Translations under genes and position numbers: made by a program
Notes under the pieces: model-generated
What the model was told of the DNA's origin: nothing
Seen by the model: the letters and a program-made list of their open reading frames with translations, nothing else
Database searches by the model: none
Source of the DNA: a virus
Lineage: Duplodnaviria > Caudoviricetes
Reading direction: 5' to 3' (one strand)
Length of the DNA stretch: 64,000 nt
IMG/VR virus record: IMGVR_UViG_3300029267_001596
Coordinates: 284 to 64,283 of that record
Shown here: positions 1 to 18,728 of the stretch, piece by piece
Layout: each line of letters starts with the position of its first letter
Position numbering within the stretch: position 1 is the first letter of the stretch

Positions 1-307
1 GCTTCATCCCAGCCCAGCTTTCATACGTCGCGCTCCTGCTCTTACGTCGGGAGTGTCCATGCGTATGCGCTCGGCGAATAGACTCTCGCCTCAGACAACC
101 ACAGCTTCGAGTGTGCCCACTCTTGAGATCCCGTTGACTCACGACTGTGTCCGCGCCGCACTCGCACCGACACGCCCAACGCCTAGCAGTGGCGTTACTA
201 GGATACCGTCGCTTGGGTGACTCAGATACAACCGTCAGTCGACCGAAAACCTGTCCTGTTAGGTCTTCGCGATATGTACGTCTTGCTGTCGCCTGGGCAT
301 CTGTCAT
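1..307 (-). CDS. HNH/AP2-type endonuclease-like phage protein, N-terminal part (runs off window start)
   Basis: Manual translation MTDAQATARRTYREDLTGQVFGRLTVV...WACRCECG...LKSGHTRSCGC...TYESWAGMK; typical N-terminus of this phage family; not in the ORF track because it is truncated. Confidence 0.8.
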   Translation of the reverse strand, partial: MTDAQATARRTYREDLTGQVFGRLTVVSESPKRRYPSNATARRWACRCECGADTVVSQRDLKSGHTRSCGCLRRESIRRAHTHGHSRRKSRSATYESWAGMK

Positions 308-322
308 CGCGCCGTCCGCCCT

Positions 323-520
323 TCACAGTTTGAGCCCAAGTGAGCGTAGATACTTTTTGGTCTTGCGTAGTTTAAGCCTGCTGGCCTTCTTCTTCGTCGC
401 CTCCAGCGGGCGATTCAGCGCCGCCGCCACCTCGGCCGTCGACTGATTGCGGAACTTCTTCTTGAGTGTCCTGACCTCGTCAGGGGTCCAATCCCCTCTC
501 TTGAGTGCCTTCTTTGCCAT
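323..520 (-). CDS. Small basic Myb/SANT-like HTH protein
   Basis: WTPDEVRTLKK...AEVAAALNRPLEATKKKASRL; SD-like AGGAG upstream. Confidence 0.7.
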   Translation of the reverse strand: MAKKALKRGDWTPDEVRTLKKKFRNQSTAEVAAALNRPLEATKKKASRLKLRKTKKYLRSLGLKL

Positions 521-577
521 AACGGTTCTCCTTTCTGATCTGTTGGACTCACCTTTTTGCGCACGCGCGCAATATGG

Positions 578-892
578 TCATCGAATGATTCCTAAGCGTT
601 CCGCTTCGTCCGCCACCCGCTCTATGGGCCTTTTCGGCGGCAGAACCGTGACGATCTCCTTGCGGCGGGTGTCGTAGCAGACCGGGAAGACTCCTTGGCT
701 CGTGGTCACACGCCACTTCGTGACCCGAGCGCTCGTGCGGCCCAGGAACTCCGCTTTCGCCGACTGGATCTGCTCGACCATCTCGCGCCGGAGCTTGCGA
801 GACAGCGGGATACCGTATCTCTCGATCATCCGACGCGCGGCGTGGATGCCCATCGACTGCCTGCGATTGCGAACGGTGCGGCGTCTGCCCAT
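578..892 (-). CDS. Hypothetical protein (HAxRRxxERYG...IVTVLP, RelE/BrnT-like fold possible)
   Basis: Start overlaps the upstream stop; motif pattern. Confidence 0.55.
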   Translation of the reverse strand: MGRRRTVRNRRQSMGIHAARRMIERYGIPLSRKLRREMVEQIQSAKAEFLGRTSARVTKWRVTTSQGVFPVCYDTRRKEIVTVLPPKRPIERVADEAERLGIIR

Positions 893-1146
893 TACGTTTC
901 GCCCCCCGTCTCTGCGCCGAGCACGTTACGCAGCTGTGCAAGCTTTCCTTCGGAGGTTCGCCACTTGGCGTAGATCTCCGATGTGTTCTGACGATGTTGG
1001 GCCAGCCGCTTCTCGTGGGACGCGCGGGCAGCCTTGAGTTGGCGAACCATGGCCTTGCGATACCGTCGCTCGTCCACCCAGAAGGCACCGAAGACAACTG
1101 CCGCCAGGGCGGACGCGACTGTTGCACCGATCAGTATGTCAGTCAT
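892..1146 (-). CDS. Membrane-anchored coiled-coil hypothetical protein
   Basis: MTDILIGATVASALAAVVFGAFW hydrophobic N-terminus; GAGGAG SD; ATGA coupling. Confidence 0.6.
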   Translation of the reverse strand: MTDILIGATVASALAAVVFGAFWVDERRYRKAMVRQLKAARASHEKRLAQHRQNTSEIYAKWRTSEGKLAQLRNVLGAETGGET

Positions 1147-1448
1147 GAGCGTTCTCCTCTTGGCGGCCGGCTGTTCACAATCCCCCGCACCCATCTGCGG
1201 GCGATGCGGGATGCGCCGAGGTCGGTGAAGGGCTTGCTTCTCGCTATTCGCAACTCGCGACAGCGGCCCATCCAGACGAACTCTACATAGAGCTGATACC
1301 GTGGCGTCATGCGTTCCTCCCGCCAGGTCTCGATGCGTATGAGTCCATGCCGGGTGCGGGCTGTGCCGACGCGAATCGTACGCTTGCCCACCCAGTACCA
1401 CATCGTCGCCTCGTAGACGGCCCAGTTTCCTTCTGTTCTGCGTGTCAT
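1143..1448 (-). CDS. Hypothetical protein
   Basis: ORF with GAGGA SD, coupled to neighbours. Confidence 0.55.
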   Translation of the reverse strand: MTRRTEGNWAVYEATMWYWVGKRTIRVGTARTRHGLIRIETWREERMTPRYQLYVEFVWMGRCRELRIARSKPFTDLGASRIARRWVRGIVNSRPPRGERS

Positions 1449-1459
1449 GATATTCCTCG

Positions 1460-1705
1460 TTAGCACATAATCTGAATGTCGAGATTCGCCTGCGCGGCCA
1501 AGGCCTTGAGCACGTCTTCGGCTGTAACCTCTTCCGAGAGGCGGACGGAGGGGTTGGGTGCCCCCAACACCACCGTTCCGTTCGTCCAGTTGAAGCGTAT
1601 TGTGGCGCGGCCGAGGTAGGGAAAGTCGTCACCCTCTTCTCTCCCTTGGTTGTCTGCCGCCCGCAGCAGTTCGTCGGCGTTCTCTAGGATGGCTATCTTG
1701 TACAT
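1460..1705 (-). CDS. Hypothetical protein
   Basis: MYKIAILENAD...; GGGAGAG SD. Confidence 0.55.
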   Translation of the reverse strand: MYKIAILENADELLRAADNQGREEGDDFPYLGRATIRFNWTNGTVVLGAPNPSVRLSEEVTAEDVLKALAAQANLDIQIMC

Positions 1706-1881
1706 GGTCTCTCCCATTCGTCGGGTGGATCGATCGTCATGGTCTGTCCGCAGCACTTGGGCCAACCGGACCGCAGGCGGTCAGCGGAGTCCACCTTCTC
1801 CGTGCGCCCGCACGTCCGGCACCAGACCTGGCCGCGCTGCAGCTTCGGCTGGGACCTGGCTAGAGTTTCGTGTATTGCCAT
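1693..1881 (-). CDS. Small zinc-finger protein
   Basis: VWCRTCG...GWPKCCGQTM. Confidence 0.6.
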   Translation of the reverse strand: MAIHETLARSQPKLQRGQVWCRTCGRTEKVDSADRLRSGWPKCCGQTMTIDPPDEWERPCTR

Positions 1882-2470
1882 GTCTCTCCTGCTTTCTGAT
1901 GATCTCGGCCACATGCCCGCTGTAGAACGATGCCCAGACAATCGCCTTGCCCTGTATGCGCCCGGCGTGTTTGCGGGGCCGGCCGTTCGCGTCCCGGCAG
2001 CAGTACTTGCGAGCGAATCGCCGCTTCCACGTGTCGATGCTGATGTCCCATCCGTAGAGCGTGCGATTGCCTAGCGGAAAGAGGTCCATGAGTCTATCCA
2101 TCAATCGGGCATCTCTTTCCAGGTACTTCCCGTACGAGTAGTCCCGGCCGATCAGGTAGACCCACCATCCGTAATAGGCGAACCCAGCGACGCCGGGGCA
2201 ATGGAACACCCAGACGTAAATGGGCCGGATCTCAGTGCCGGCGACGCAGCGCCTGCGCTCCAGTTGTCGCCGTTGCCGCGCGCGCTTCTGGCGACCCACC
2301 TCCGCCCACGTCACGGTACGCCATCGTCCGTGCTCGTCTTTCGTCGCCCGCGCAACGTCGGGTCCGAACTGCGAAGCCAGTATGTCGAACGGCCCGCGCT
2401 CGGCCGCCCTCTCGCGCGTTCGGGGTCGTGTCCATATAACGGTCACTTCTGCGACTCCTTCCTTCCCCAC
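1781..2470 (-). CDS. Hypothetical protein
   Basis: 229-aa ORF in operon orientation. Confidence 0.5.
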   Translation of the reverse strand: MGKEGVAEVTVIWTRPRTRERAAERGPFDILASQFGPDVARATKDEHGRWRTVTWAEVGRQKRARQRRQLERRRCVAGTEIRPIYVWVFHCPGVAGFAYYGWWVYLIGRDYSYGKYLERDARLMDRLMDLFPLGNRTLYGWDISIDTWKRRFARKYCCRDANGRPRKHAGRIQGKAIVWASFYSGHVAEIIRKQERHGNTRNSSQVPAEAAARPGLVPDVRAHGEGGLR

Positions 2471-2769
2471 TCATCGCACCAGCCGGTGGGGTCGACTTGC
2501 CTCTCCACCCATTCACGACAGCAAAGATGGAGACGCCACGATGAACTGTGGATGCATGACGCGCAATTCGCACACCGCTGCTCGCACTCTTCCGGCACGT
2601 GGTCAGCTACACCCCCACATCGGGGACACTTGGGCTTGCGCACCAATCGCCACGCCTTCTTGGCCCCGCCCACGACGCACGCCTTGACAATGCTCCCGAG
2701 CAGGCCGGCGAGCGCGAAGGGGATCTTCCACTTCTTGTCTGGGCCTTGGAATCCTATCGGTCCGGTCAT
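2443..2769 (-). CDS. Cys-rich hypothetical protein with hydrophobic N-terminal segment
   Basis: CPRC, CANC and further Cys; ATGA-coupled to upstream gene. Confidence 0.5.
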   Translation of the reverse strand: MTGPIGFQGPDKKWKIPFALAGLLGSIVKACVVGGAKKAWRLVRKPKCPRCGGVADHVPEECEQRCANCASCIHSSSWRLHLCCREWVERQVDPTGWCDEWGRKESQK

Positions 2770-2936
2770 CGCTTCGCCCCTTCCTGGGTCGGTTTGCGGT
2801 CGATCTGCGCCTCCTTCGGCGCCGTGATGACCACTCGCGTCTTCGCGATCGCCCTGCGCACATGAATGCGTATCCGGTCGTCGATGACGATATCCTCGCG
2901 CCGGGAGGGGCAGACTACTAATCGAGTGTCTACCAT
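2766..2936 (-). CDS. csrA: Divergent CsrA/RsmA-family RNA-binding protein (56 aa)
   Basis: Manual translation MVDTRLVVCPSRREDIVIDDRIRIHVRRAIAKTRVVITAPKEAQIDRKPTQEGAKR; aligns by eye to CsrA (E-x-I-x-I-x-D, R-x-x-I-x-APKE-x-x-I-x-R); GAGGAGG SD; below the ORF-track cutoff. Confidence 0.75.
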   Translation of the reverse strand: MVDTRLVVCPSRREDIVIDDRIRIHVRRAIAKTRVVITAPKEAQIDRKPTQEGAKR

Positions 2937-2945
2937 GGTGCCTCC

Positions 2946-3260
2946 TCAGCAGTTGAGTGCCCCGCGTACGACAATCACCAAGGCGTCGTCCAGCTTGCCG
3001 TCGTGCGTGTACGCCCGGACCGCCATTGTCTCAGCCAATTCACGCAACGCTTCGCTTGTTTCACGGGGGCGAATCTTTGGATCGACGATTCCCTGGAGTA
3101 GAGCCACGCCAGCGTCGTCGGCCTTGTTGCCCGTCAACGCCGCGCGTCGCTCCAGGTCTTCCAGTTCGTCAACCAAGGCTTCACCGAGTTTCGGCCCGAT
3201 CTTCTTGGCCGCCCACATAATCGCCTTGCCGCCTATCCATTCGCGTATTCTTCCGAACAT
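2946..3260 (-). CDS. Hypothetical protein
   Basis: ORF with AAGGAG SD. Confidence 0.6.
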   Translation of the reverse strand: MFGRIREWIGGKAIMWAAKKIGPKLGEALVDELEDLERRAALTGNKADDAGVALLQGIVDPKIRPRETSEALRELAETMAVRAYTHDGKLDDALVIVVRGALNC

Positions 3261-3370
3261 ACTCCAAGACTCCTTTCCTTATCTGAGTGGAGTGGCCGTT
3301 ACTGCTCTGGCGGGGCAACCGTGTGAAAGCCCGCATCGTCACAGAGGGTCACGGCCACTTGAAGCGAACG

Positions 3371-3898
3371 CTATCTGCTAGCCTTGGGCTTGAAGCGAAT
3401 GCATGGGCCGGTGACGACCACGTACCGGTCATGGTCCTCCCGGAACGTCTGCCACGCCTGCTGGTACTCGGTCGCCCAGTCGAACCAGTGTCGCGGCGCA
3501 TCGTTGAGTGTGGTCTTACTGCCCACCAGCCACCCGGCTTCCAGTTGCCCATCCTGAAACTCCCAGCCCCCGTAGAGCCCGGCATAGACCACCCCCTCCG
3601 GGAGCGTCCAGTCTCCATTGATCCAGTTGGCGATGACGTCCGCCGTTAGGGCGTTGTACATCCCATAGACTCTCAGGTCAGTAGCGACGTCGCCTTCAGA
3701 GGCCAGCGCCTTGTCGTAGCGTGGTGCAATGTAGGCCTCGAACGCGTCCCAGATCGCCCCCAAGCGAAATTCCGCAACGTTGTCCCCCGCCATGATGCCG
3801 ATCGTCCATTCGATCTCAGGCGCATTGGGCTCTTCCTCGGCGAAGCTCGTCACCGTCATCGCGGCGACCATCATCAGTACTGCGATCCATCGTTTCAT
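3371..3898 (-). CDS. Secreted or outer-membrane-like protein
   Basis: Sec signal MKRWIAVLMMVAAMTVTSFA; beta-strand-like, aromatic-rich mature part. Confidence 0.7.
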   Translation of the reverse strand: MKRWIAVLMMVAAMTVTSFAEEEPNAPEIEWTIGIMAGDNVAEFRLGAIWDAFEAYIAPRYDKALASEGDVATDLRVYGMYNALTADVIANWINGDWTLPEGVVYAGLYGGWEFQDGQLEAGWLVGSKTTLNDAPRHWFDWATEYQQAWQTFREDHDRYVVVTGPCIRFKPKASR

Positions 3899-3913
3899 GC
3901 TCTTGTCTCCTTA

Positions 3914-4189
3914 CTACTCGGTGATTGCTTTTTCGACGACCAACGTCCACATGTCGTCGATATCGTGATCGTTCCAGTCTGAGCACAACCCGCTTGCTCT
4001 CATCGCGTTCCGCACCTGCATCCCCTCGCGGAAGTGGACCGGATGCGGTATGGGCCGATTGGCCTTGCGCCCGAACGTGGGACTCACTGACCCCGCCCAC
4101 CGCCTGTAACGCCGGAACAAGGCGACGCCGCGCGGCCCAAGCCACTCGCGGATGTGCTCTACCAGTTCGTGTGAAGGTTCCCGGCGCAT
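3914..4189 (-). CDS. Hypothetical protein
   Basis: PHPVHFREGMQVRNAMR...DHDIDD; AGGA SD. Confidence 0.6.
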   Translation of the reverse strand: MRREPSHELVEHIREWLGPRGVALFRRYRRWAGSVSPTFGRKANRPIPHPVHFREGMQVRNAMRASGLCSDWNDHDIDDMWTLVVEKAITE

Positions 4190-4194
4190 CGGTC

Positions 4195-4674
4195 CTACTC
4201 CACGATGAACCAGTCGTCGCTGAGCATGTCGGCCTGGCTGGCGACCCAGCCCGGCTGCCACTGCTTCTTGGCGTTGTACAGAGCAAAGTAGGCCTGGCAG
4301 TCCAACGGGACATCGGGACCGATGAGCCTCGCTGTGCGGTCGTTGACCTTCCGACCGGGCTCTTGGGAGTTGAACGGAGGCAGGTGCATCGGCGACATGT
4401 AGACCGCGAACATGTCCGCTCCGTTCCACCCAGCCCGGGCGATCTTGTGTCCCTGCTTTGCCGCCTCGATCGCGAAGCCGAACGGCATACCCGTCGTTGG
4501 GCGGTTATGCTTCTCGAACGTCTCCTTCGGGCACCAACTCTGATAGCCCTCCTCGTACTTCACGAGGTAGCCGTGATCTTCGACGTTGCCATCGATGGGA
4601 CGCCCCAAGTACTCTTGGGCAGCAGCCAACGTCATGGGCTCGCCGTCTACAATCTTGACTCCGATGAATCTCAT
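4195..4674 (-). CDS. DUF2829/Tad2-like protein (putative cyclic-nucleotide sponge, anti-Thoeris/CBASS)
   Basis: FGFAIEAAKQGHKIARAGWNG...GWVASQADMLSDDW signature, plus N-terminal GYLVKYEEGYQSWCPKETFE module. Confidence 0.8.
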   Translation of the reverse strand: MRFIGVKIVDGEPMTLAAAQEYLGRPIDGNVEDHGYLVKYEEGYQSWCPKETFEKHNRPTTGMPFGFAIEAAKQGHKIARAGWNGADMFAVYMSPMHLPPFNSQEPGRKVNDRTARLIGPDVPLDCQAYFALYNAKKQWQPGWVASQADMLSDDWFIVE

Positions 4675-4731
4675 AGCTTCGTGACTCCTTTCAATATCTG
4701 CTCTCGTTCACCGCCTGGACGTCCGGGCGGT

Positions 4732-5157
4732 CTATAGCACTCCGTCAGCACAGTCTTGCGTCTGGTCCGTCTGGGCCGACTCTGTCTCAACATCCTCGGC
4801 CAGGCGATCGAAGCACTTGTCACACAGCGGCACGCCTTCGCTATCTGTCTTGGTGGCCGTGCGCCCGCAGCCCTCGCAGTAGTCCTGGGCCTCAGGCCCC
4901 GGCAACTCCCACTGTTGAACGGGTTGAGGTCGGTTCTGCTGTGCGACCGCCCTGACGATCGACTCGGTCGTGGGCGTCATGCAGTAGACACTGGAGACGT
5001 TGTAGAATTGGGTCGCCGGCGGCTCGCTGGGGATGTCGATGCGCAGCATGCCCTGTCCGGCGATCTCCACCTCACGCACGTAACCGGCCAAACGCCGGTG
5101 CCCCATCAGTTCCAGAATCACCCACTGGGCAAACGGCTCTCTTCCTTGTCCTTCCAT
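4732..5157 (-). CDS. Conserved phage protein with C-terminal Zn finger
   Basis: WVILELMGHRRLAGYVREVEIAG...LRIDIP; CEGC...CDKC. Confidence 0.7.
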   Translation of the reverse strand: MEGQGREPFAQWVILELMGHRRLAGYVREVEIAGQGMLRIDIPSEPPATQFYNVSSVYCMTPTTESIVRAVAQQNRPQPVQQWELPGPEAQDYCEGCGRTATKTDSEGVPLCDKCFDRLAEDVETESAQTDQTQDCADGVL

Positions 5158-5177
5158 GGTTCTCCTTTCGATTTCTG

Positions 5178-6779
5178 CTATCCAACGTCCGCTCGCGCCG
5201 CTTCGCGAAGCCGTACGTTCGCCTTAACCAGCGCCGCCGCGATCGGCGGACACACACTGTTCCCTATCTTCGCCACCTGGCAGGACTTCGTGCCGGTCAA
5301 GTGGTATGTGTCCGGGAAGCCTTGGGCGCGGGCCAGTTCTCTTGGGGTCAGCATCCGCAGGCCGATATCCGCGATCTGGTAGTCATGGCCTGCGACTGTC
5401 ACCAGGCCCAATCGGTGCTTGGCGGTGATAGTGTGCGCCGGTTCCCGACACGACTGCCCAACAGCCGTATTGAAGTACTTCAGGAGAAAGGCACGCACCT
5501 CGCCGATGTGCTGGCCGCCTCCGGTGACGGTCGGCATCGGCTGGCGCGGGTCGCTGCCCGTCGTCGTGCCGTAGAATTTCGTTAAGTAGGAGGTCACCAG
5601 GGCGTCGTGATTCTGCGCTGATGCGGTGGGGGATGGCGTGTCGACCGATGATCCGACGGACTGACCGTAGTACCGGGTCATATGGGCCGCAACGAGCCCG
5701 AATCGGTTGAAAGTATCCTGAGTTCGCAGTGGATCGCGCAGGTTTTGGCCCCGTGCCTCTTGCCCCTTGGCTCCGTGGTAGTTGATCAGGTACGGGGCAA
5801 CCAGAGCCTTCTCGCCCCGATGCGCCGTCGTGATCGTACGTAGCGGCTCTTCCGCCTTTTCGAGTCTGCCGCCATGAGTGAGGTTGTAGAGATACGGCGT
5901 CACCAACCCCATCGCATGACCGGCTCCAGCGGGACGCTTGACGTAGCTTCCGGCCGTAATCGTATGCATGGGCTCGTGAATCGTCTGCCCGGTCGCGCCC
6001 TGGCGGAACTTGATGATGAACGGGTCGCCGCTCTCGATGACAAACTTGCGAATCCCCCGGGCGATCCGCGCCAGCGTCTTCTCAGCCAGAGGCCGTCGAA
6101 CGCCCCAGGCCTTGGCCTCTTCTTTCGTCAGGAAGATGGAGGGGCACGGTAGCGACCAATCGATGCATTCAGCGGCCGTGTGGTATGGCAGCTTTCCTTC
6201 CCAGTGCGTCGGCTCCGGCCACACGATCGGCCGGCCGTCGCAGCGAGCAATCACAAACAGCCGCTTGCGGATCGTCGGCGCGCCATAGTCGCAGGCCCGC
6301 AGGTCTTTGCTCTCCAGTTCATAGCCCAGGGCACGGAGTTGTTCGCACCAGAGCTTGAATGTCTCGCCCTTGCGCCGCTTGTCCGGAACAGAGTCCTTCG
6401 TGAGAGGCCCCCACATCCTAAACTCAGGGACGTTCTCCAGGATGATGACCCTGGGCCGCACCGCCTTGGCCCAACGCACGACCACCCAGGCCAGCGAACG
6501 GATGTTCTTCTTCACCGGTTTGCCGCCTTTGGCGCGGGAGAAGTGCGTGCAATCGGGGGACGCCCACAACAGTCCCACCGGTCGCCCGGCTGTCGCTTGA
6601 GCCGGGTCCACGTTGTAGATATCGGCGCACTCGTGGCGGGTGCGTGGATGGTTCATCCAGTGCATGGCCATCGCATCCTGGTCGTGATTGACCGCCAGGT
6701 CCACCGGCACTCCCAATGCTTGCGTGATCCCCAGCGACGCTCCGCCGCCGCCGGCGAACATGTCTACGATCATCTCCAC
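5178..6779 (-). CDS. DNA (cytosine-5) methyltransferase
   Basis: Motifs DMFAGGGG, ASPDC, ENV, RKRLF, RAQGFP, KIGNSV. Confidence 0.95.
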   Translation of the reverse strand: MEMIVDMFAGGGGASLGITQALGVPVDLAVNHDQDAMAMHWMNHPRTRHECADIYNVDPAQATAGRPVGLLWASPDCTHFSRAKGGKPVKKNIRSLAWVVVRWAKAVRPRVIILENVPEFRMWGPLTKDSVPDKRRKGETFKLWCEQLRALGYELESKDLRACDYGAPTIRKRLFVIARCDGRPIVWPEPTHWEGKLPYHTAAECIDWSLPCPSIFLTKEEAKAWGVRRPLAEKTLARIARGIRKFVIESGDPFIIKFRQGATGQTIHEPMHTITAGSYVKRPAGAGHAMGLVTPYLYNLTHGGRLEKAEEPLRTITTAHRGEKALVAPYLINYHGAKGQEARGQNLRDPLRTQDTFNRFGLVAAHMTRYYGQSVGSSVDTPSPTASAQNHDALVTSYLTKFYGTTTGSDPRQPMPTVTGGGQHIGEVRAFLLKYFNTAVGQSCREPAHTITAKHRLGLVTVAGHDYQIADIGLRMLTPRELARAQGFPDTYHLTGTKSCQVAKIGNSVCPPIAAALVKANVRLREAARADVG

Positions 6780-7618
6780 TATGCTGTCTCCCTAGGAAAC
6801 TCCCGAACCCGCAGGTCTCGGGGAAACTTCGTAATGTCCTTGACGACCTTGCCGTTGAGGTCGACTTGCTTGACGAAGACGGGGATGTTGGCCGCTTGGC
6901 CCTGCTGGACGATCGAGCGGAGCCAGTTGAGTTGGCATCGGCGACGCCCGGGCCCGGACTCACAGCCGACGATAATCCACCCTAACAGGCCCCGAAGATC
7001 TTCGTGGTTCGGCGCCAATCCTAGATGGAACTTAAGATCGACGGGCCCGAGCAGCGGCTCGAACGAGGCGAAGCGCAACACCGGATCAATCTCATACAAG
7101 TCGCGAAGTCGCCTGTCGGCCCACTCCTGGTTCTCGCAGGTCGCGCCCATCCAGATGTTCGGGGCGTTGACGATCGGGCACGGCAGGCCGTCGTGCTCGT
7201 CCGCGTCGGCGATACAACTGCGGTAGTATTCCAGGGCCCGATCGGGGCGCTTGGTCAGGACCTGGAAGGTTGTGTTCGGATGGCTGATCATCTCGGAGTA
7301 GACCTCGTCGAGGAATTGAAAGGGCACCTTCTCGTGGAACAAGTCCCCCATCGAGCAAACGAAACACATCCCCGATTTCGGGATGTTGTCCCAATGGCGC
7401 TGCGTGCAGACGGCCACTTCGCCATTCCATCGGCCGTCGTAATAGTTGATGACGTCCAGGTAATTGGGCTGCCCCATTCCCGCGAGTCGCTGCGCCATCC
7501 GCTCGGCGTAGCAGTTCTGGCAGCCGGGCGAGACCTTCGAACACCCAACAATCGGGTTCCACGTTTGGTTACTCCACTCTATCCTTGTCTTTGACACGTT
7601 GGGTCTCCTTGGTTTCAC
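6779..7618 (-). CDS. Phage Gp37/Gp68 (DUF5131) radical-SAM-like protein
   Basis: IEWSNQTWNPIVGCSKVSPGCQNCYA, SMGDLFH, LTKRP, SFEPLLG, GCESG. Confidence 0.9.
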   Translation of the reverse strand: MKPRRPNVSKTRIEWSNQTWNPIVGCSKVSPGCQNCYAERMAQRLAGMGQPNYLDVINYYDGRWNGEVAVCTQRHWDNIPKSGMCFVCSMGDLFHEKVPFQFLDEVYSEMISHPNTTFQVLTKRPDRALEYYRSCIADADEHDGLPCPIVNAPNIWMGATCENQEWADRRLRDLYEIDPVLRFASFEPLLGPVDLKFHLGLAPNHEDLRGLLGWIIVGCESGPGRRRCQLNWLRSIVQQGQAANIPVFVKQVDLNGKVVKDITKFPRDLRVREFPRETA

Positions 7619-8517
7619 CTCTCCGTTCGCTCGAACTCATAGACGGCGATCCAGGGATTGCCGACGACGTACCACGGTTTGCCTCGATGCTCCCGGGTCT
7701 CACGAACCGACTCCCACGGGTAGGAGACAAAACACGCCTCTTTGGCCCAGGTGTACGGGTTGTGCGTGCTCGGCTTCGGTTTGGAATTCAGCGAGTCCCA
7801 GAGGTAGGCGAATATCTCGCGATTACCTGCGGTCCGCGTGTCGGCTACGGGCGTGCCGTATCGCTCGTATATCTCTTCCCTTCGCTGGTTCCACGCATCA
7901 TCATGCACCTTGCGAATAATGGCGTCCGTCTCGATGCCTTCGGCCTCAGCGTCCGCTTCGCTGATATCCTGCACGTGCTCGACGCGCACACCCTTGACCC
8001 GGCGACGGATGCGGGCCGCCCACTTGGGCATGTGGATCGCGGGTATGCACCGCTCAGTCAGGTTGTCGTCTGAATCAACATATTCCTGGATGCCATCTGT
8101 TGCGGGGTAGCCGACCGCGTACCCTTCGCCCGTGTTCCAATCCGCGTCCCAGTATCCTACGCCCTCTGCATACAAGGGCTGAATCTTCTCCCGCACCCAC
8201 AATTCGTCCTCGTTTCGGTACGGCAGGCAGTACCCCAACTGCCCATCGGCCGAACACGGACCCCAGCCGATGACTACCGGCTCGCCCCGCCGCATCACGA
8301 ACTCGCCGTTCACCATCTTGTGGATGTCGCCGAAGTGGTCCGGGCTCCACCATCCCGGCGGCTGGGGCTTGAGGTGGCACCTTCTCGTCTGCGTCTTGCG
8401 AAACTCCGTAGACCCACACCGCTCGCACGGGAACGGAACGGACATCTCGCCGCACTTGGCGCACGTGATGGTCGCTCGGACCATGGGCGTGCTGAATAGG
8501 ATCGGCTTCTCACTCAT
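7615..8517 (-). CDS. ASCH/PUA-like phage protein
   Basis: KPILFSTPMVRA...KTQTRR...LWVRE...IHMPKWAARI...VRVEHVQDISEADAEAEG...NPW. Confidence 0.8.
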   Translation of the reverse strand: MSEKPILFSTPMVRATITCAKCGEMSVPFPCERCGSTEFRKTQTRRCHLKPQPPGWWSPDHFGDIHKMVNGEFVMRRGEPVVIGWGPCSADGQLGYCLPYRNEDELWVREKIQPLYAEGVGYWDADWNTGEGYAVGYPATDGIQEYVDSDDNLTERCIPAIHMPKWAARIRRRVKGVRVEHVQDISEADAEAEGIETDAIIRKVHDDAWNQRREEIYERYGTPVADTRTAGNREIFAYLWDSLNSKPKPSTHNPYTWAKEACFVSYPWESVRETREHRGKPWYVVGNPWIAVYEFERTER

Positions 8518-8782
8518 CGTGTTCCTCAATCATCTCAACCGCTGTCGCCAGGATCATGGCAGTCATCATTCCGTTGCCGTGGGGTTCTCTCTCGGCTATC
8601 TCTTTCAGGCAGCGATGGGTAGCCTCCATCACTGTGAGATCGTGGCACTCCATCACCCCCTCGATGACCTTGCGGGTCCTTGCCACTCGGGCCTTATACA
8701 CTTCGCCCAGAAGCTGCTTCATCAGCTTCCGGCCCTCGTACATCTTGGCCGCGATCTCGATTGCCTGTTCACTCATACTCAT
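8510..8782 (-). CDS. Hypothetical protein
   Basis: ORF in operon. Confidence 0.55.
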   Translation of the reverse strand: MSMSEQAIEIAAKMYEGRKLMKQLLGEVYKARVARTRKVIEGVMECHDLTVMEATHRCLKEIAEREPHGNGMMTAMILATAVEMIEEHDE

Positions 8783-8788
8783 GTCCTG

Positions 8789-8815
8789 AAAACGGGGCCG
8801 GGCTGGCCGGCCCCG
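8789..8815 (-). terminator. Intrinsic terminator
   Basis: CGGGGCCGG-CCAGC-CCGGCCCCG followed by TTTT on the minus strand. Confidence 0.55.
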
Positions 8816-9051
8816 CGACCTGTGCTGTATTGCACCAAAACCTCAGTTGTCTTGTTGGGTGTGCTCTGCCCCGGGCGGCGCTCGGCATCTGGGTCGGGTG
8901 CCCGGTCCTGTCGTTTGCGAACAGTCGTTTGGGGGCCGTCTTGGCGCTCGCCAGTACTGCCCATGCCAGCCATCGGCATCACGGCACAGTAACAGCCCCA
9001 GGGCGATGAACGCCCGGTGCCAATTTGAAGCTGTCCCGGCGCGGCATCTAC

Positions 9052-9687
9052 TCATGACTTGATCCTCTCCACCAGATCGATCAGTTCGCCCAGCGTCTTG
9101 ACCTTCTCGGCGTCTTGGTCCTGGATGGCGATATCGAACGCCTCTTCGCACTTCATCAGGACCTCCACGGCGTCGAGTGAGTCGGCGCGGAAGGCGTCGT
9201 ACAGATCGTCATTGCGGTCAAGCTCCTCCAGGTCCGCGCCGGTGGTGTCGAATTGGTCAGCGAGGATCTCGAGTATCTTATCTTCAGTCGTCACGGCGTC
9301 ACCTCCTGGGCCGAGAAGGCTGTCGAGTAGGGTCAGATCAACGATGCACCAGCCCAAGATCTCCCGGGTGGTTTTGACTAGCGCCTCCTTGAGTACAGCG
9401 ACCTCGTTCGAGTCGCCCGGGGTCAACGGAAACACGTCCCCGTCTACCGAGCGAAGCACATCGATGACCTGGATCTGATCCGCCGGCCGGGCCAGCAGGT
9501 AGCCGCCCTTCGAACCGCGGATCGCACGAACCAGACCGGCCTTCTTCAAGTCGGACACGATGACATCGGCGTACTTGGCGCTGATGCCCGCCCCTTCGGC
9601 CAGCTTGGCCAGGGAAAGGTGTCCCTGGGCGCCGTGCAGCTTCACCAGTAGATCGATCGCGTGGGTTACTCGGGTGGGTAGTTGCAT
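9052..9687 (-). CDS. Rrf2-family winged-HTH regulator fused to an acyl carrier protein domain
   Basis: N-terminal LKKAGLVRAIRGSKGGYLLARPADQI (Rrf2); C-terminal ADSLDAVEVLMKCEEAFDIAIQDQDAEKVKTLGELI (ACP with pantetheinylation Ser). Confidence 0.9.
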   Translation of the reverse strand: MQLPTRVTHAIDLLVKLHGAQGHLSLAKLAEGAGISAKYADVIVSDLKKAGLVRAIRGSKGGYLLARPADQIQVIDVLRSVDGDVFPLTPGDSNEVAVLKEALVKTTREILGWCIVDLTLLDSLLGPGGDAVTTEDKILEILADQFDTTGADLEELDRNDDLYDAFRADSLDAVEVLMKCEEAFDIAIQDQDAEKVKTLGELIDLVERIKS

Positions 9688-9713
9688 GATCTATCTCCTT
9701 CCTGAGTGAGGAC

Positions 9714-10595
9714 CTAAGAGAACAGTTCGTCCCGGTGCTCTGACGTGTCGTGATTGGTCAAGAGAACTTCGATCGCTTTCGTCTTGTTCTCGCCCCGCTT
9801 GTTCTGATGGGACATCGCCTTGGCGACCGTCTTGTAGTGCTTGGTCCAGGTCGGGTACAGTTCGTCCAGTCTGTCGTGTTGGTAGTAGCTCAATACAACC
9901 CGAGTCTCTTTGAACCGGCCCAGCAGCTCCGCCAGTCGTTCGTGGTCCTCGTCAGTGAAGTCGTGCAGGTACTTGGCGCTCTTCTCGAAGTAGGGCGGAT
10001 CGCAGTAGATGGCCGTCCCGGCCTTGTCCTCGATCTTCTCGCCCACCTCGAAGACATCGCGGCGCAGGACCGTGACGTTCAGCAGGCGTTGATGCCACCA
10101 TGGGATACTCTCGATAACGCCCTTCCACCGCTTGGCCGCGTGGCCGCCGTTGGACGTGTATCGAACACAGAAGCCGGAGTTGTAACAGGCTGTGCCAGCC
10201 GCACCGTTGCGGCCCTGCCAGGAGCACAGGAGGTAGTCGTACGCCCGGTCAAGGTCGGGTCCGTCCAACTCGACCTGGCGGGCCTCCACGAGTCGGTTTC
10301 TGGCCTCTTGATGCAACTGATCGGACATCAGCGTCCGTGCCGTCCTGGCGTAGAGTTTCAAGGCCAGTTCTTCGACCTGCAGGACCTTCGCGAGGTTGGT
10401 CACGTCGGCGTGCAGATCTACGACGGTTTCCATCACGCACGGCTTCTTCGCAAACGTCACAGCCATTGAACCGCAAAACAGCTCCCAATACACTCGGTGC
10501 AGGCCCAGCAACGTGATCGCCACCGGGGCCAGGTTGCGCTTGCTCCCCAACCAGGGCGCCGCCGCTTTGTTCTTCATCCCGGAATCCGTTCCCAT
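9714..10595 (-). CDS. DNA adenine methyltransferase (Dam/D12 class)
   Basis: PWLGSK, ELFCGS, YCDPPY, SYY, EVL. Confidence 0.9.
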   Translation of the reverse strand: MGTDSGMKNKAAAPWLGSKRNLAPVAITLLGLHRVYWELFCGSMAVTFAKKPCVMETVVDLHADVTNLAKVLQVEELALKLYARTARTLMSDQLHQEARNRLVEARQVELDGPDLDRAYDYLLCSWQGRNGAAGTACYNSGFCVRYTSNGGHAAKRWKGVIESIPWWHQRLLNVTVLRRDVFEVGEKIEDKAGTAIYCDPPYFEKSAKYLHDFTDEDHERLAELLGRFKETRVVLSYYQHDRLDELYPTWTKHYKTVAKAMSHQNKRGENKTKAIEVLLTNHDTSEHRDELFS

Positions 10596-10668
10596 TGCTC
10601 GTCCTGAACTCCTTTCTCCCAGGGGCGGCCGCCCTGTCACGGCCGCCCCGGAAATAGGGTGATGGGGG

Positions 10669-11853
10669 TTAGGCCGCCGATTGAGCTGGTGTCAGTTCGC
10701 CAAGGCAGGAACACTTGCCGCTCTCAGGCCAGTGGTCGTACGGTTTGCTGCAACGACGGCAGATGTATGCCGTAGGAGATTCCTTAGCCAACGCAGCGTC
10801 CAGGGCGGCGTCGTCGTCCATCGGCCCACCGACCTGGCTGGTCGCATCGGCCAATTGGCCATGCACTTCCTTGGCCTTCTTGAGTGTCACATGCACGGCC
10901 TTGTCGGACAATTGGGCTATTGACTTGCCGGGTATAACCCTCTGGTCGCGGCCAGGGAACGTGCTGAGCTTGATGCAGATCCCGTCCGGCGTATCCCCGC
11001 TGTCGGATCGCACCAGTGCAAAGGTCTTGTAGTCCTCCGATGCCGCTGTCATGCCCGCGTTGGCGATATCGACGCAGAGACGCATCAGCTCTTCCCTTGC
11101 GTCGCCCGGCTGTCGGGGTGCGGTCTGGGCCTGCGTCCCGTTCTGGTCCGACCGGCGCCTGGGCTGTTGGACTGTCGGCTGTGCCCCGTTCCCGTTGGTG
11201 GTGCTGCGGGTCTTGTCGGTAGAGGCCAGATCATCGTCGTCGATGTCCTGGGTAAAGATGTCACTGGCAGCCGTCGCCGTCAGGGTTGCATCGACGTTCG
11301 CCCTCTTCTTGGCCATCTTGAGCACGGTATTGTAGTAGTCGGCCGGGTTGTCATGTTCGATGCGCTCGGAGATCGTCCACGCGTTGTTCTTCTTGCGGGG
11401 ATGAAACTGCGGACCACCCAATATCTTCGGGTCTCGCGTTTCCCAATAGTCCTGGGGCACCGGCCGGCCGGTGTCTTCGCTGCGGAACCGATACTTGGCT
11501 TCCATCGTCGAACAACTGCCCACGCCCGAGCCGACGAACGCACCTGTGTTGATGTTGCACAGATCGCACGTGACGATGTACTCGCGGTGCCCACCTTCGA
11601 AGTCCAGTCGTTCGATCGCAAAGCGCGGGGCCAGTCGAAACGTAAACGCCAACTTCTCAGCCCCCGGCTTGAGTAGACTGGGTTTGTCGCCGCAGCCGGG
11701 GATCTGGCCGTAGTGTTCACCGGCCTTCATGACATGCTTCATGACCTGCTGAACCTTTGCCACCTGGCTCAGTACCGTCTTTACACTCATCTCGTCGGAT
11801 TGCTGCTGAATAGCGCTCGATTCTTGCGTTTGCGGTGCTAGTTCCGTGTTCAT
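10669..11853 (-). CDS. Putative single-strand annealing/recombination protein
   Basis: HYGQIPG-KPSLLKPGAEKL...NTVLKMAKKRA..D...SDIFTQD; next to an exonuclease. Confidence 0.65.
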   Translation of the reverse strand: MNTELAPQTQESSAIQQQSDEMSVKTVLSQVAKVQQVMKHVMKAGEHYGQIPGCGDKPSLLKPGAEKLAFTFRLAPRFAIERLDFEGGHREYIVTCDLCNINTGAFVGSGVGSCSTMEAKYRFRSEDTGRPVPQDYWETRDPKILGGPQFHPRKKNNAWTISERIEHDNPADYYNTVLKMAKKRANVDATLTATAASDIFTQDIDDDDLASTDKTRSTTNGNGAQPTVQQPRRRSDQNGTQAQTAPRQPGDAREELMRLCVDIANAGMTAASEDYKTFALVRSDSGDTPDGICIKLSTFPGRDQRVIPGKSIAQLSDKAVHVTLKKAKEVHGQLADATSQVGGPMDDDAALDAALAKESPTAYICRRCSKPYDHWPESGKCSCLGELTPAQSAA

Positions 11854-12563
11854 ATCGCTCTCCTTGTGGCCGTATTGACGGCCACGCTCGTCTCAGTGAC
11901 GGCCTTGCAGCCGGGGATATTGAAGGTCTGACGCATGGCCCGCGCCATGCCATTGAGGGCCACCATGTTCGGCTGCACCAGTTCAGTTGAAGCCTGTCCG
12001 TTGGCCACGGCCCGACATAGGGCCTTGATGTCCACGACCTCCGCCTTCCATCGCTTCTGCGTAGAGACGCCAGTGGCCTTCGCATAGACGGGCTTGGCGA
12101 CGATCGCTGGTCGCACGACAGGAGTTGTGAGGATCTCGTCGACCGTCTCTTCGGTCGCTCCGTTCTCTTCAGCCTCCTGAGCCAGGGCCAGTCGAGCTTC
12201 TTCGTCCGCCTTGTGTTGGGCCTCCTCCAGTTGCCTCTGTTTCTCCTGCTGTAGCCGCTCCTGTTCGCGGTCCCAGTTGCCGATAGCAGTCTTGATGATC
12301 TGCTCGGCCTGTGCGATCGGGTCGAGCAGCTTCTTCTCGGCCGCCACGGCAGCCTTGTGGGCCTTGTGCGCGGCGTCTTTGATCGGCTTGTGATGGGCCT
12401 GGATCTCCTTGCGCAGACCCACGATGTCGCCCAGGAACGACGCGGCTGTGTTGTACGTCTCCTGGTCGGTGATTGTGATAGCCTTGGCCCGATCCGGCCA
12501 CGCCAGGGCGACTTGTTCCATCTGTTCGACCTCCGTTGTCTCTACGGGTGCGTTAGCTTCCAT
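11850..12563 (-). CDS. Coiled-coil recombination-module protein (Gp157/Gam-like)
   Basis: Long helical coiled coil; C-terminal W..EVVD...IPG. Confidence 0.55.
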   Translation of the reverse strand: MEANAPVETTEVEQMEQVALAWPDRAKAITITDQETYNTAASFLGDIVGLRKEIQAHHKPIKDAAHKAHKAAVAAEKKLLDPIAQAEQIIKTAIGNWDREQERLQQEKQRQLEEAQHKADEEARLALAQEAEENGATEETVDEILTTPVVRPAIVAKPVYAKATGVSTQKRWKAEVVDIKALCRAVANGQASTELVQPNMVALNGMARAMRQTFNIPGCKAVTETSVAVNTATRRAI

Positions 12564-13104
12564 AATGCGTCCTCCACTCAGTAACGGTTAATGCGGCGTT
12601 GAAGACGCCCAGGTCGCGCGCGAACTCCTCACGGGGAAACTCCCGGACCTGATACGTCGCGTCCTTCTTCAGGTACAACCCGAACCGGCGATACGAGTAG
12701 GGATCGGGCAACATGTTGACGTATGCAGCCGTCTGGATCGCGTGCCACGGGAAATGACAGCCGCTCTTGATGTCCCACAACTGCCTGGGCCGGGCCTGCA
12801 GAATGCGGTCGGGCGTGCCCCGATAGCGGCCCAGCGGGTCCTGCTGCGGGCACTCGATCCACTCCCACTGAACGGCCCCGTGATCAGCCTGAAACTTGCA
12901 GTACGCCTCAAGGTAGGGCGCAATGACCGGATCGACCGACGCCTCATCCAGATCGCCCTCGTCGTGGTAGTGACAGGCGGCATGCACGGCCGTGCCCCGA
13001 TCGCGTACGGCCTGCGTGAACCACCGCGTGTCGACAATCCCCGCATCCTTGAGGACCTCGGTGACGCGCGGCAGGTTGGTGTTGACGGTTCCTTCGGGGG
13101 TCAT
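12553..13104 (-). CDS. PD-(D/E)xK exonuclease (Cas4/RecB-like)
   Basis: PRVTEVL, RGTAVH, GTPDR, DIKSG, QTAAY. Confidence 0.85.
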   Translation of the reverse strand: MTPEGTVNTNLPRVTEVLKDAGIVDTRWFTQAVRDRGTAVHAACHYHDEGDLDEASVDPVIAPYLEAYCKFQADHGAVQWEWIECPQQDPLGRYRGTPDRILQARPRQLWDIKSGCHFPWHAIQTAAYVNMLPDPYSYRRFGLYLKKDATYQVREFPREEFARDLGVFNAALTVTEWRTHYGS

Positions 13105-13177
13105 TCGGCCACCTCCTGGCCGTAGCCGTCGAACATCGTTGGCATCCAGAGGGCCTTGAATCCGGCCCAGATTGCGG

Positions 13178-13369
13178 TTAGGAGTCGCATGGGGTTACCT
13201 CCAAGGGCGTATTCGCCGCGCCCAGGGCGGGCTCACGTGGTCCCTCTTCAAGTTCCTCCTGCCCGCCACACCTGACCAGTTGCGCCCGGAGAATGGCCTC
13301 GCCCTCGCACAGCAGGCAGTGTTGCACCATCGTTCCGCCGTTGATAACGTTGGCGATGTGCTGGTACAT
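13178..13369 (-). CDS. Small hypothetical protein
   Basis: TGATG coupling, GGAGG SD. Confidence 0.4.
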   Translation of the reverse strand: MYQHIANVINGGTMVQHCLLCEGEAILRAQLVRCGGQEELEEGPREPALGAANTPLEVTPCDS

Positions 13370-13683
13370 CAGGAGGCCTCCTCTAAGGCCGCGTCGGATA
13401 ACTTGGCCTCTACGGCCTCGCAGTATCCCGCCTGCCGGGTCCGCCCCGTCAACTCCACGACCCCCGCCTCCACCAGGGCCTCGGGAATGCCCTCGTTCTC
13501 TGACCAGCCCTTGAGCCAGACGCACCCTTCGTCGGCTGGAATCTCGAGATTGACCGTCGCCACGTACAGCCGTTCGCTTGTCGTGGGGTCGTCGCCGATG
13601 ATCGCGGCCCCGCCGTCCTGATAGCAGGGAAAGCTCAGCGCAACCCGGCCCTTGGTGTACTTCGTAGTCACGTCGATCAGCAT
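13369..13683 (-). CDS. Hypothetical protein (DUF4313-like)
   Basis: ATVNL...VWLKGWSENEGI..AL..AG. Confidence 0.65.
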   Translation of the reverse strand: MLIDVTTKYTKGRVALSFPCYQDGGAAIIGDDPTTSERLYVATVNLEIPADEGCVWLKGWSENEGIPEALVEAGVVELTGRTRQAGYCEAVEAKLSDAALEEAS

Positions 13684-14090
13684 CAGCCCACCTTTCTCTG
13701 CTCTGTTACGTCGGGGAGTAGGCGGTCCACTGTGACGTCAAGGACGCAGTCCCTCGCTCCGTCGTCCTGCTGTGGCTCGACCGGGAAGGCGTCCAGGATC
13801 GCCCGGTACTTGCGCCGCCATCGTTCGCGGGCGACCTCGGGGTCTCGTTTCCGGTACGCCGCCTCGCCCATCATCGCGTCACGGACTATCATCGCCCGGA
13901 CTTCATAACAGAGGTAGCAGAACTCCTGCTTGTTCGCAGGCACGAGACTCGGGTAGATCCTCTCCACATGCTCGTCGATAGGGTCCCGGCGCGTGGCAAT
14001 GCAGGATTTGTGAACTCTTTTTTGACAGAACTCGCAGGCCGCTGTCTCCTGGCCTTCAATAATGTCCTCGTTGCATGTTGGGCATGTCAT
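13683..14090 (-). CDS. Zn-finger hypothetical protein
   Basis: CPTC..CEFC...H..C...CYLC; GAGGTG SD. Confidence 0.6.
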   Translation of the reverse strand: MTCPTCNEDIIEGQETAACEFCQKRVHKSCIATRRDPIDEHVERIYPSLVPANKQEFCYLCYEVRAMIVRDAMMGEAAYRKRDPEVARERWRRKYRAILDAFPVEPQQDDGARDCVLDVTVDRLLPDVTEQRKVG

Positions 14091-14240
14091 ATTTCACCTC
14101 GCTCAATCAGACCGGTCGCCCGGTCGGTTACATCAGAGGGAACACGAGGTCGCTCAAATGGGGTGACTGGCGTACGACCAGCCACCCCTGAGCGAAGGTG
14201 TAAAGGTGCGATTCGGATCTCCGTAGCACAGATACGCGGG

Positions 14241-14354
14241 GAGCCCCAACGGGATTTGAACCCGGCAACGGATCTGGCCCACCAGACCAGGACGGTTGCC
14301 TACGTGACCTCCAGCTTTCCAGACTGGCGCTCTACCTTGCTGAGCTATGGGGCA
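14241..14354 (-). tRNA. Atypical tRNA-like element (GGA anticodon) with about 40-nt hairpin insertion; probably non-canonical
   Basis: GCCCCA-TA-GCTCAGCAAGGTAGAGC-G-CCAGT-CTGGAAA-GCTGG-AGGTC-AC[insert]GGG-TTCAAAT-CCCGT-TGGGGC; 6-bp acceptor stem, no CCA. Confidence 0.6.
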
Positions 14355-14678
14355 ATCCCTACAACCTTTCGGAGGCCGTGTTCGGTACACCGTAATCGCG
14401 GTTGGTGACAAAGGTCGGTTCCCATCCATGGAGGGAGATGTTCCCCGACCTTCGGAGGAGTTGATCAAGATAAAGGGGAGTCGGCTGTTAAAAAGGGCCT
14501 ATCGACCGTAAACGTCCATTGGACGATTTACAGTGGTTGGTTTCCGAACTCCCCTGAACGACCAGGAATAACCGTACAGGCGACTGCCTACCAACGGGAT
14601 ATCACCGCCTTCCGGCAGTCGCCTTGTACAGCCCCTCTCCGGCCCGACGTCTAGGCCTACGGAGAGGCAATCGCACAT

Positions 14679-16193: not shown

Positions 16194-16413
16194 CCATCGC
16201 CCCTTTCCATGCTGCATCCATGAGCCACTTGCGCAAAGAGTCTACCGGATACATCAGGATACCGCCAACCTTCAAATGTGGCACGATCCCCTGAGTGGTC
16301 CAATCAGACAGCTTGCGCTCGCTGATACTCAAGGCCTTCGCCGCTTCCGGGGCCCGCAATGACAAACATGGCACAGAGGGCCCGGAAGGCTTCTTTGGCT
16401 CTATACCAATCAT
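16132..16413 (-). CDS. xis: Excisionase-like HTH protein
   Basis: LRAPEAAKALSISERKLSDW...VPHLKVGG..MYP...LRKWL, directly upstream of int; GGAGG SD. Confidence 0.8.
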   Translation of the reverse strand: MIGIEPKKPSGPSVPCLSLRAPEAAKALSISERKLSDWTTQGIVPHLKVGGILMYPVDSLRKWLMDAAWKGAMDGESRERHQRQEEDSVPSGG

Positions 16414-16487
16414 AGATAACCTCCGTTCAAGCCCGGCGCGGTGTGCGCCGGGCAGTCTTTCACCATTTCCTCGTGTTCACTCTGCAG

Positions 16488-16499
16488 TTGTCAAAGATC
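16488..16499 (-). promoter_or_regulatory. boxA-like antitermination element
   Basis: GATCTTTGACAA, resembling rrn boxA, upstream of a GC hairpin at 16430-16455. Confidence 0.4.
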
Positions 16500-16509
16500 A
16501 CTGTTTCAA

Positions 16510-16656
16510 AGGGGATGGTGGGATTTGCACCCACACGTGCCACACAGTCGCGGGAGATAATTCCCACGGCGCTCGTGCCTCAATTGCGTGCCCGCCACCC
16601 TGTGTGATGCACAGCCGAGCTTGACCGCGTCTAACTAGTATTTCCGCCACATCCCC
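16510..16656 (-). ncRNA. tRNA-like RNA with Leu-type D-arm, no anticodon arm and about 75-nt multibranch insert
   Basis: Perfect 7-bp acceptor GGGGATG/CATCCCC, GCG...AGACGC D-arm, T-arm GTGGG-TGCAAAT-CCCAC. Confidence 0.65.
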
Positions 16657-16697
16657 ATGTTGTCTGGCCCGCTGGGGGCCTAAAGAGCTATACCCGC

Positions 16698-17456: not shown

Positions 17457-17460
17457 CCCT

Positions 17461-18585: not shown

Positions 18586-18607
18586 TTGCCACCTCCCATG
18601 CAGCCCC

Positions 18608-18728
18608 CGCCGTCCGTGGCGTAATACTGGGGTTCCACCCCGGGGGCTGCGAGTCCAAAGAAACCAACGCCTGCCGTCCGTGGCACGTGGGCCGTCCATG
18701 GCCCTGCCGTCCATATGCCATCCGTGAA
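18608..18728 (-). promoter_or_regulatory. Array of Csr/Rsm-type ANGGAN hairpins
   Basis: CGCC-ACGGAC-GGCG, TGCC-ACGGAC-GGCA, GGGCC-ATGGAC-GGCCC plus two weaker copies (ATGGAC, ACGGAT). Confidence 0.7.

Follow-up and report, generated by a model that had tools for sequence, protein, structure and literature searches.

We find that the 56-aa ORF at 2766..2936 on the minus strand of this phage genome probably encodes an RNA regulator of the CsrA fold. For the CsrA fold alone, our confidence is higher. The original prediction had been of a divergent CsrA-like phage protein, and it is borne out by profile matches that are significant although they stay below the curated thresholds, by a predicted fold of five strands, and by a predicted intertwined homodimer that passes its controls. 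Formal membership of the CsrA/RsmA family fails on three points: the score, the beta1 arginines, and helix H1. We propose that a temperate phage of the P22/SU10-like kind carries this ORF as an expressed-type accessory gene, the product of which would be a minimal, very divergent CsrA/RsmA fold, with five strands intertwined as a homodimer. Such a protein would have kept the APKE turn and the arginine that reads GGA, would have lost the two beta1 arginines and the C-terminal helix, and would have become much more basic. It would most likely act as a dimeric, presumably RNA-binding regulator of translation or mRNA stability, docking on GGA-type motifs in loops and in ribosome-binding sites.

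The virus record is 64,283 bp long, has direct terminal repeats and is rated complete; the window, the whole stretch of DNA analyzed here, comprises its bases 284-64283 (64,000 nucleotides). Pfam families matched by 16 of the 40 larger ORFs point to a tailed temperate phage. The proteins identified by Pfam in the window include a P22-like portal, an SU10-type adaptor, a gp3-like small terminase, and a tyrosine integrase, and further DnaB, three DNA methyltransferases, a DUF5131 protein, and a Tad2-like anti-Thoeris protein. Nearly all genes of the phage are carried on the minus strand. The closest terminases from isolates are ~29% identical to the large terminase (a 643-aa ORF at 54571-56502), and the phage is thus without a close cultured relative; no close relatives of the large terminase were found in IMG/VR. 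Where does this phage occur? Its DNA is nearly whole in two sediment and two seawater metagenome runs (window positions 1-20000, runs X1-X9), and small shares of it are present in five further runs, four from sediment and one from seawater. These nine runs belong to seven studies, some of which are possibly one campaign, and there is no RNA run among them. Four of the low-share DNA runs contain short phage fragments only, one of which spans 2701-2947 with a single differing letter.

Both the 56-aa ORF and the strong GAGGAGG Shine-Dalgarno sequence that had been described for it lie on the minus strand, the latter read directly at 2941-2947, 4 nt before the ATG. The ORF is defined by the ORF list, by its Pfam CsrA match, by its GC content at the three codon positions, and by its homodimer prediction. 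Upstream, a 104-aa ORF (2946-3260, minus strand) has a stop that overlaps the ribosome site of the CsrA-like ORF; downstream, the ATG of a 108-aa Cys-rich ORF (2443-2769, minus strand) overlaps the TGA of the CsrA-like ORF as ATGA. Neither neighbor has a Pfam or PHROG match or relatives in IMG/VR, and the CsrA-like ORF is translationally coupled to both. At codon positions 1/2/3, its GC content amounts to 0.63/0.46/0.75, a pattern shared with nine other phage genes (0.58-0.67/0.40-0.54/0.70-0.85). An identical 56-aa protein, called on 4 contigs, is found in a public protein collection. The 56-aa ORF is a real gene because it has a ribosome site, stop/start overlaps with its neighbors, and the codon-position GC of a gene. 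That no gene exists at 2766..2936 is hardly credible: the ORF is short and an orphan, but the strength of its ribosome site, its overlaps on both sides, its gene-like GC content by codon position, and a specific profile match all argue against such a reading. A hairpin also lies within the ORF at 2807-2822 (minus strand), where the A-P-K-E-A codons fold into a 5-bp stem with the loop GAAGGA; it may be a site for self-binding or simply a consequence of the codons.

The likeness of the protein to CsrA exceeds what is expected by chance, since Pfam CsrA (PF02599) matches it at E 3e-5, the ORF ranks first among 918 in a search with a CsrA model, and 1 of 5000 shuffles scores as well. The Pfam match places residues 12-48 on profile positions 8-45 of 53, CsrA is the sole Pfam family to match the protein at E<=10, and a six-frame search of the whole virus record recovers the same match at E 5.5e-6. 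Of the expected hit to the Pfam CsrA model, then, the match itself stood and membership did not: at 24.3 bits the score is below the gathering score of 27, and the membership cut-off is missed. Likewise, two NCBIfam models match below their cutoffs (TIGR00202, E 0.016, 15.3 bits against 70.1; NF002469, E 0.033, 14.2 bits against 73), and PHROG 9500, a "CsrA-like regulator", matches at E 0.21. For our own profile tests, the reference alignment comprised E. coli CsrA and seven phage CsrAs (8 sequences). Comparison with this alignment by hhalign gave E 6.2e-4 with a probability of only 28% over 37 columns (query 13-49, template 9-46). When an HMM built from the 8 CsrAs was run against the 918 ORFs of at least 40 aa, taken from stop to stop in six frames, the CsrA-like ORF came out on top with 13.4 bits (E 0.0029) and the next-best ORF reached 3.0 bits; the shuffles mentioned above were counted at 13.5 bits with the same HMM. 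The CsrA-like ORF is the sole CsrA-like sequence among the 918.

An alignment by eye to CsrA with a single gap had been claimed, and MAFFT with E. coli CsrA and six phage CsrAs gives the same mapping: one internal one-residue gap, to which it adds a 4-residue N-terminal extension. Identity to these CsrAs is 21-31%. The residues said to be kept are indeed kept, with A39-P40-K41-E42 on APKE and R47 on R44 of E. coli CsrA, and L6, I18, A39, P40, and R47 are invariant with the seven CsrAs. The R44-type arginine of CsrA is essential for reading the first G of GGA. The residues said to be lost are lost as well. P10 and S11 stand at the R6/R7 columns, so that the basic residues at the end of beta1 are absent there, with R12-R13 following two positions later and R5 preceding beta1. 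K48-P49-T50 stands on E45-E46-I47 of E. coli CsrA, and after R47 there are only 9 residues, P49 among them, where the helix containing EEI would be. In E. coli CsrA, an alanine scan reportedly found R6, R7, V40, and I47 to be among the eight residues most important for RNA binding; these four of the eight are changed in the phage protein, to P10, S11, A43, and T50. The phage protein has a pI of 10.8 and a net charge of about +5.6, compared with 8.2 and +0.6 for E. coli CsrA. We also considered an AbrB/MazE-like reading of "ITAPKE" and rejected it: no such Pfam match was found at E<=10, and the motif lies toward the C-terminal end as in CsrA.

Structure prediction is consistent with this alignment. 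The AF2 monomer, predicted from the single sequence, has low confidence (mean pLDDT 61.5) and shows strands at 2-8, 14-18, 22-26, 33-39, and 45-49, all five in register with beta1-beta5 of the alignment. Helix H1 after beta5 is absent, with at most 3 helical residues (51-53) in the AF2 model. CsrA exists only as an intertwined dimer, and fold searches with the monomer are therefore uninformative: Foldseek against the PDB gave 0 of 180 listed matches at E<=0.001, and VIA-align against 48,161 chains gave a best Z of 4.0, with none at 5 or above. The homodimer, whose structure the original prediction had proposed to model, received a median ESMFold2 score of 0.34 (runs 0.35, 0.34, and 0.34), whereas the best of 3 controls scored 0.00. 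The mark used for this call is reached by 21 of 30 proteins solved as one-chain pairs, whereas among 23 proteins solved as single chains 0 reach it. At least 94% of contacts are common to the runs, which have a pLDDT of 70-71 and predict an interface of 161-163 contacts over residues 3-51. The most confident contacts pair strand 2 (16-19) with strand 5' (43-46) and strand 1 (8-10) with strand 4' (35-37), with symmetric contacts at 18, 22, 24, and 26. In this predicted topology, beta1 and beta5 interlock to give two sheets of five strands each, as in the CsrA dimer; the available text of PMC7366521 describes the family as five consecutive antiparallel strands that dimerize by "intertwining of beta1 and beta5". 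The homodimer pass may reflect the memory that the model has of CsrA structures, in which case it would show likeness rather than binding.

How isolated is this protein? A word-indexed search of 5.8 billion clustered proteins and a phmmer search of 1.84 billion representative proteins each returned the 56-aa protein itself only. INPHARED yielded no relative by tblastn at E<=10, and none of the candidates from GTDB genome contigs (0 of 383) or JGI metagenome contigs (0 of 544) was related. Three weak matches in IMG/VR were set aside as chance, one being an AT-rich 81-aa ORF and the other two an 11-residue identity inside a 526-aa protein. Aligned with CsrAs, the protein offered no conserved stretch usable for a profile-guided scan of IMG/VR. 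A scan with CsrAs only returned canonical CsrAs only, 71-96% identical to the E. coli protein; since all of these matches are canonical, they form no bridge to the 56-aa protein. BLASTP against E. coli CsrA gave nothing at E<=100, and phmmer against PDB sequences gave nothing at E<=10. By protein language model, the neighbors are viral clusters that carry a CsrA name or a partial CsrA annotation; their scores, 0.83-0.85, make them leads only.

These searches bear on the possibility that we are dealing with a small, basic, beta-rich phage protein, such as a DNA-binding protein or a protein-protein adaptor, whose likeness to CsrA is convergent or accidental. The protein misses all curated cutoffs, its BLASTP and PDB sequence searches are empty, and it is an orphan in all protein collections searched. 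Moreover, the 11-residue stretch around APKE recurs by chance in the unrelated 526-aa phage protein, and language-model neighbor scores below 0.9 are often reached by shuffled proteins. On the other side, five independent CsrA models match and no other Pfam family does so at E<=10, the match takes in the strands from beta2 to beta5, correctly ordered and spaced and with the invariant residues where they belong, and the predicted dimer has the specific strand pairing of CsrA. We consider convergence or chance unlikely and favor a divergent CsrA fold.

If the fold is that of CsrA, would the protein bind RNA itself? It might instead be a decoy that forms mixed dimers with host CsrA, or competes for a partner of CsrA, and in this way turns host Csr control off. 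The parts that are missing, the beta1 arginines and helix H1, belong to the RNA site (the N-terminus of H1 contributes to it, according to the available text of PMC7366521), while the residues of the dimer core are kept and an extensive dimer interface is predicted. In addition, Campa et al. 2021 (PMC8450108), in the portion available, describe many phage RsmA/CsrA genes, the presence of which correlates with csrA in the host. However, the essential arginine and APKE are kept, and a pI of 10.8 fits nucleic-acid binding. The available text of PMC7366521 also describes heterodimers of CsrA paralogues as undemonstrated, and the identity to canonical CsrAs given above is low for the co-folding of an intertwined dimer. 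A decoy is very improbable in our view, and a regulator that itself binds RNA is preferred.

What might such a regulator bind? Csr-type hairpins had been claimed at 18.6-19.0 kb; they exist, at 18.6-18.7 kb, and are clustered beyond chance. On the minus strand, a 97-nt stretch (18608-18704) that ends shortly before the ribosome site of a 75-aa ORF contains three hairpins with AYGGAY hexaloops, the stems of which consist of 4-5 bp of G+C. The first (18689-18704) has a 5-bp stem and the hexaloop AUGGAC and is present in minimum-energy folds. The second (18672-18685), with a 4-bp stem and the hexaloop ACGGAC, is a copy of a 12-nt direct repeat. A hairpin with a 4-bp stem and the loop UGGAA is then found by folding at 18629-18641, and the last (18608-18621) again has a 4-bp stem and the hexaloop ACGGAC. 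Only 10 nt separate the end of this last hairpin from the ribosome site GGGAGGUGG (18589-18597, minus strand), which was located by inspection of the gene start, and the GGA of the hairpin lies ~19 nt upstream of the GGA in that site. A spacing of ~19 nt between GGA motifs is within the range that a CsrA dimer can bridge. Two further AYGGAYGG words occur just upstream of the cluster. The 75-aa ORF itself (18358-18585, minus strand) is Cys-rich (CxxC ... CxxC), is the first gene after the cluster, and has no Pfam or PHROG match.

Counted over the entire window, AYGGAY hexaloop hairpins whose stems have at least 3 bp number 5 on the minus strand and 0 on the plus strand, and none of 300 first-order Markov simulations contained at least 3 such hairpins within 100 nt. 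ANGGA motifs number 5 in the region 18586-18740, whereas dinucleotide shuffles have 0.63 and 0 of 2000 attain that count; GGA motifs number 8 there, compared with 3.9 in shuffles, of which 9 of 2000 attain 8. Folding of the 171-nt leader is unexceptional, with a z of -0.68 and 39 of 200 shuffles folding at least as well; a longer stretch of 431 nt has a z of -2.53. No Rfam model matched the minus strand of 18300-19500 at E<=10. The TwoAYGGAY motif (RF01731) had no match at its gathering score in the window and none at E<=10 in 18300-19500. Of the models in Rfam clan CL00106 (CsrB/RsmX/RsmY/RsmZ), RsmY alone matched, on the plus strand at 19222-19325, with E 3.3 and 12.2 bits where the gathering score is 57. 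We rejected this purine-rich "RsmY-like" stretch as a candidate: it is far below the gathering score, and its 7 GGA are reached by 140 of 2000 local dinucleotide shuffles, so its GGA richness is probably compositional. The idea that ribosome sites throughout the genome lie in GGA hairpins and make up a regulon was rejected too, since most of the 47 gene starts inspected are plain AAGGAG-type. Among these 47, only the exonuclease-like gene starting at 13104 has its ribosome site, GGAGG, inside a hairpin loop (13105-13121, minus strand; 6-bp stem).

Are the hairpins a target of the phage protein? The best candidate target in the phage would be the leader at 18586-18740 (minus strand), in which a GGGAGG site comes after three AYGGAY hairpins and one more GGA loop. 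The 75-aa ORF heads an unbroken minus-strand run of small ORFs, the integrase, exonucleases, methylases, the Tad2-like gene, and the CsrA-like gene, which ends the run ~16 kb beyond the leader. With the leader at the head of this run and the CsrA-like gene at its end, feedback or timing control would be possible; host mRNAs are an equally possible target. We infer both the identity of the target and the regulatory logic. We likewise infer that the leader and the CsrA-like gene belong to a single transcription unit; scans for promoters and terminators gave signals at or below shuffle expectation and defined no transcription unit.

There is almost an even chance that the hairpin cluster has nothing to do with the phage protein, being either a leader or sponge for host CsrA or, in its 12-nt repeats, a set of DNA sites for a DNA-binding protein of the phage. 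The loops are of the canonical AYGGAY/ANGGA type and fit a canonical CsrA, whereas beta1 of the 56-aa protein is altered. As for DNA sites, the hairpin stems belong to a 12-nt direct repeat in three copies, which might just as well be a DNA site and reads GCCGTCCRTGGC on the plus strand with spacings of 64 and 18 nt, and the cluster is located in an intergenic region of 750 bp that separates divergent gene blocks close to the integrase, where operators are typically found. Against DNA sites, the units are self-complementary hairpins with GGA centered in the loop, on the coding strand and immediately 5' of a ribosome site. Such an arrangement is needed by an RNA site and not by a DNA site. A complete Csr-type circuit of the phage's own is doubtful. 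In such a circuit, the helix-less protein, made late because its gene stands at the far end of the leftward block, would bind the AYGGAY leader at the head of the block and shut or time its translation, or else would pair with host CsrA and neutralize it while the leader soaks up the rest. One virus would then carry both the protein and the RNA arm, and the RNA-binding surface of the protein would be re-specified.

How does the 56-aa protein compare with known CsrAs? Canonical CsrA genes in phages are already documented. Sobrero and Valverde 2020 (PMC7366521, text available in part) counted 30 csrA-positive phages among 2517. In our searches, tblastn with E. coli CsrA hit 88 INPHARED phage records, including F116, H66, phi297, and Vibrio and Xanthomonas phages, and 546 of 553 matches to a CsrA pattern in IMG/VR were confirmed. 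Like these phage CsrA/RsmA proteins (Pseudomonas F116, H66, and phi297 of the "RsmM" type; Vibrio and Xanthomonas; PHROG 9500), the 56-aa protein is small, is encoded in a non-structural part of a temperate phage, and keeps APKE or AP together with the essential arginine; in F116, csrA sits close to the repressor/Cro region with small unknown genes around it. The known phage CsrAs, however, share 42-64% identity with E. coli CsrA and can be picked up by tblastn, whereas the 56-aa protein, with its far lower identity to canonical CsrAs, is invisible to BLAST. Unlike them, it is without the beta1 arginines, helix H1, and a C-terminal extension. With the bacterial repressors CsrA, RsmA, and RsmE (PF02599), it shares the five-strand core, the predicted intertwined homodimer, the APKE turn, and the R44 equivalent; it differs from them in its score below the gathering threshold, the lack of H1, P/S in place of R6/R7, and its more basic pI (10.8 against 8.2).

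Other mobile elements also carry their own copy of a global translational regulator. RsmQ of plasmid pQBR103 takes over host regulation (PMC9928087, in the portion available), and CsrT is a CsrA homologue on Legionella ICEs (cited in the available part of PMC7366521). Unlike the 56-aa phage protein, RsmQ and CsrT are close to host Rsm proteins. For the leader, the nearest comparison is the TwoAYGGAY motif of Weinberg et al. 2010 (PMC2864571, text available in part), recounted as proposed Csr/Rsm binding sites in the accessible text of a preprint (bioRxiv 10.64898/2026.09.22.753630). Both have short tandem hairpins with AYGGAY hexaloops, but the phage has three hairpins and a GGA loop as a 5' leader before a ribosome site and no free-standing repeat.

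The surroundings of the CsrA-like ORF contain several other features. In the same gene block, a protein with a Tad2-like (anti-Thoeris) domain is encoded at 4195-4674 on the minus strand (Pfam E 4.8e-21), and three DNA methyltransferases are near the Tad2-like gene (5178-6779, 9714-10640, and 60271-60999). The block with the CsrA-like ORF and the Tad2-like gene looks like a host-takeover or anti-defense module. At 9052-9687 (minus strand), an Rrf2-type transcriptional regulator domain (E 1e-19) is fused to a phosphopantetheine-attachment, acyl-carrier-like domain (E 5.7e-9), an unusual combination. Just downstream of the integrase, at 14241-14354 (minus strand), lies a tRNA-like gene (Rfam tRNA, 41.9 bits) with a GGA (Ser) anticodon and, at the position of the variable arm, an insert that is unusually long at ~44 nt; the gene was uncalled by ARAGORN, and its 3' 31 nt have no exact match in 185,579 species genomes. 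In a 316-aa ORF at 16698-17648 (minus strand), a 9-residue unit of the type NGTVN-x-V-x-x is repeated in tandem about a dozen times.

Beyond the hairpin cluster, a plus-strand island at 20098-22252 has a lower GC content (0.56-0.59) and encodes a lipoprotein-like ORF and a DUF6923 protein. By eye, the C-terminus of the DUF6923 protein has the look of a PEP-CTERM-type sorting signal, with a proline motif, a hydrophobic stretch, and a basic tail, which may hint at the type of host. Two giant ORFs follow on the minus strand, one of 1629 aa (24231-29120) with a pectate-lyase-like domain and one of 3033 aa (28928-38029) with a weak methyltransferase domain. They overlap each other by ~190 nt and are probably tail or ejection proteins.

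Why would a phage carry such a protein? Phage-borne CsrA genes have been catalogued and proposed to reprogram host physiology or to suppress defenses such as CRISPR-Cas; the suppression of CRISPR-Cas by phage RsmA/CsrA genes is put forward as a hypothesis in the available portion of PMC8450108. A phrase search of the literature, within the text portions that it covers, brought up PMC8450108 alone and found no functional test of a phage-encoded CsrA/RsmA. The copy described here would show how CsrA drifts in viruses, having come down to 56 residues without the helix, with an altered beta1, and beyond the sight of BLAST, and the same genome contains a plausible target in cis. If the protein does not bind the leader, the hairpins would point to control of the phage early operon by host CsrA. 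If it does bind, this phage would provide a compact model of translational control owned by a virus and would define the minimal RNA-binding unit of CsrA.
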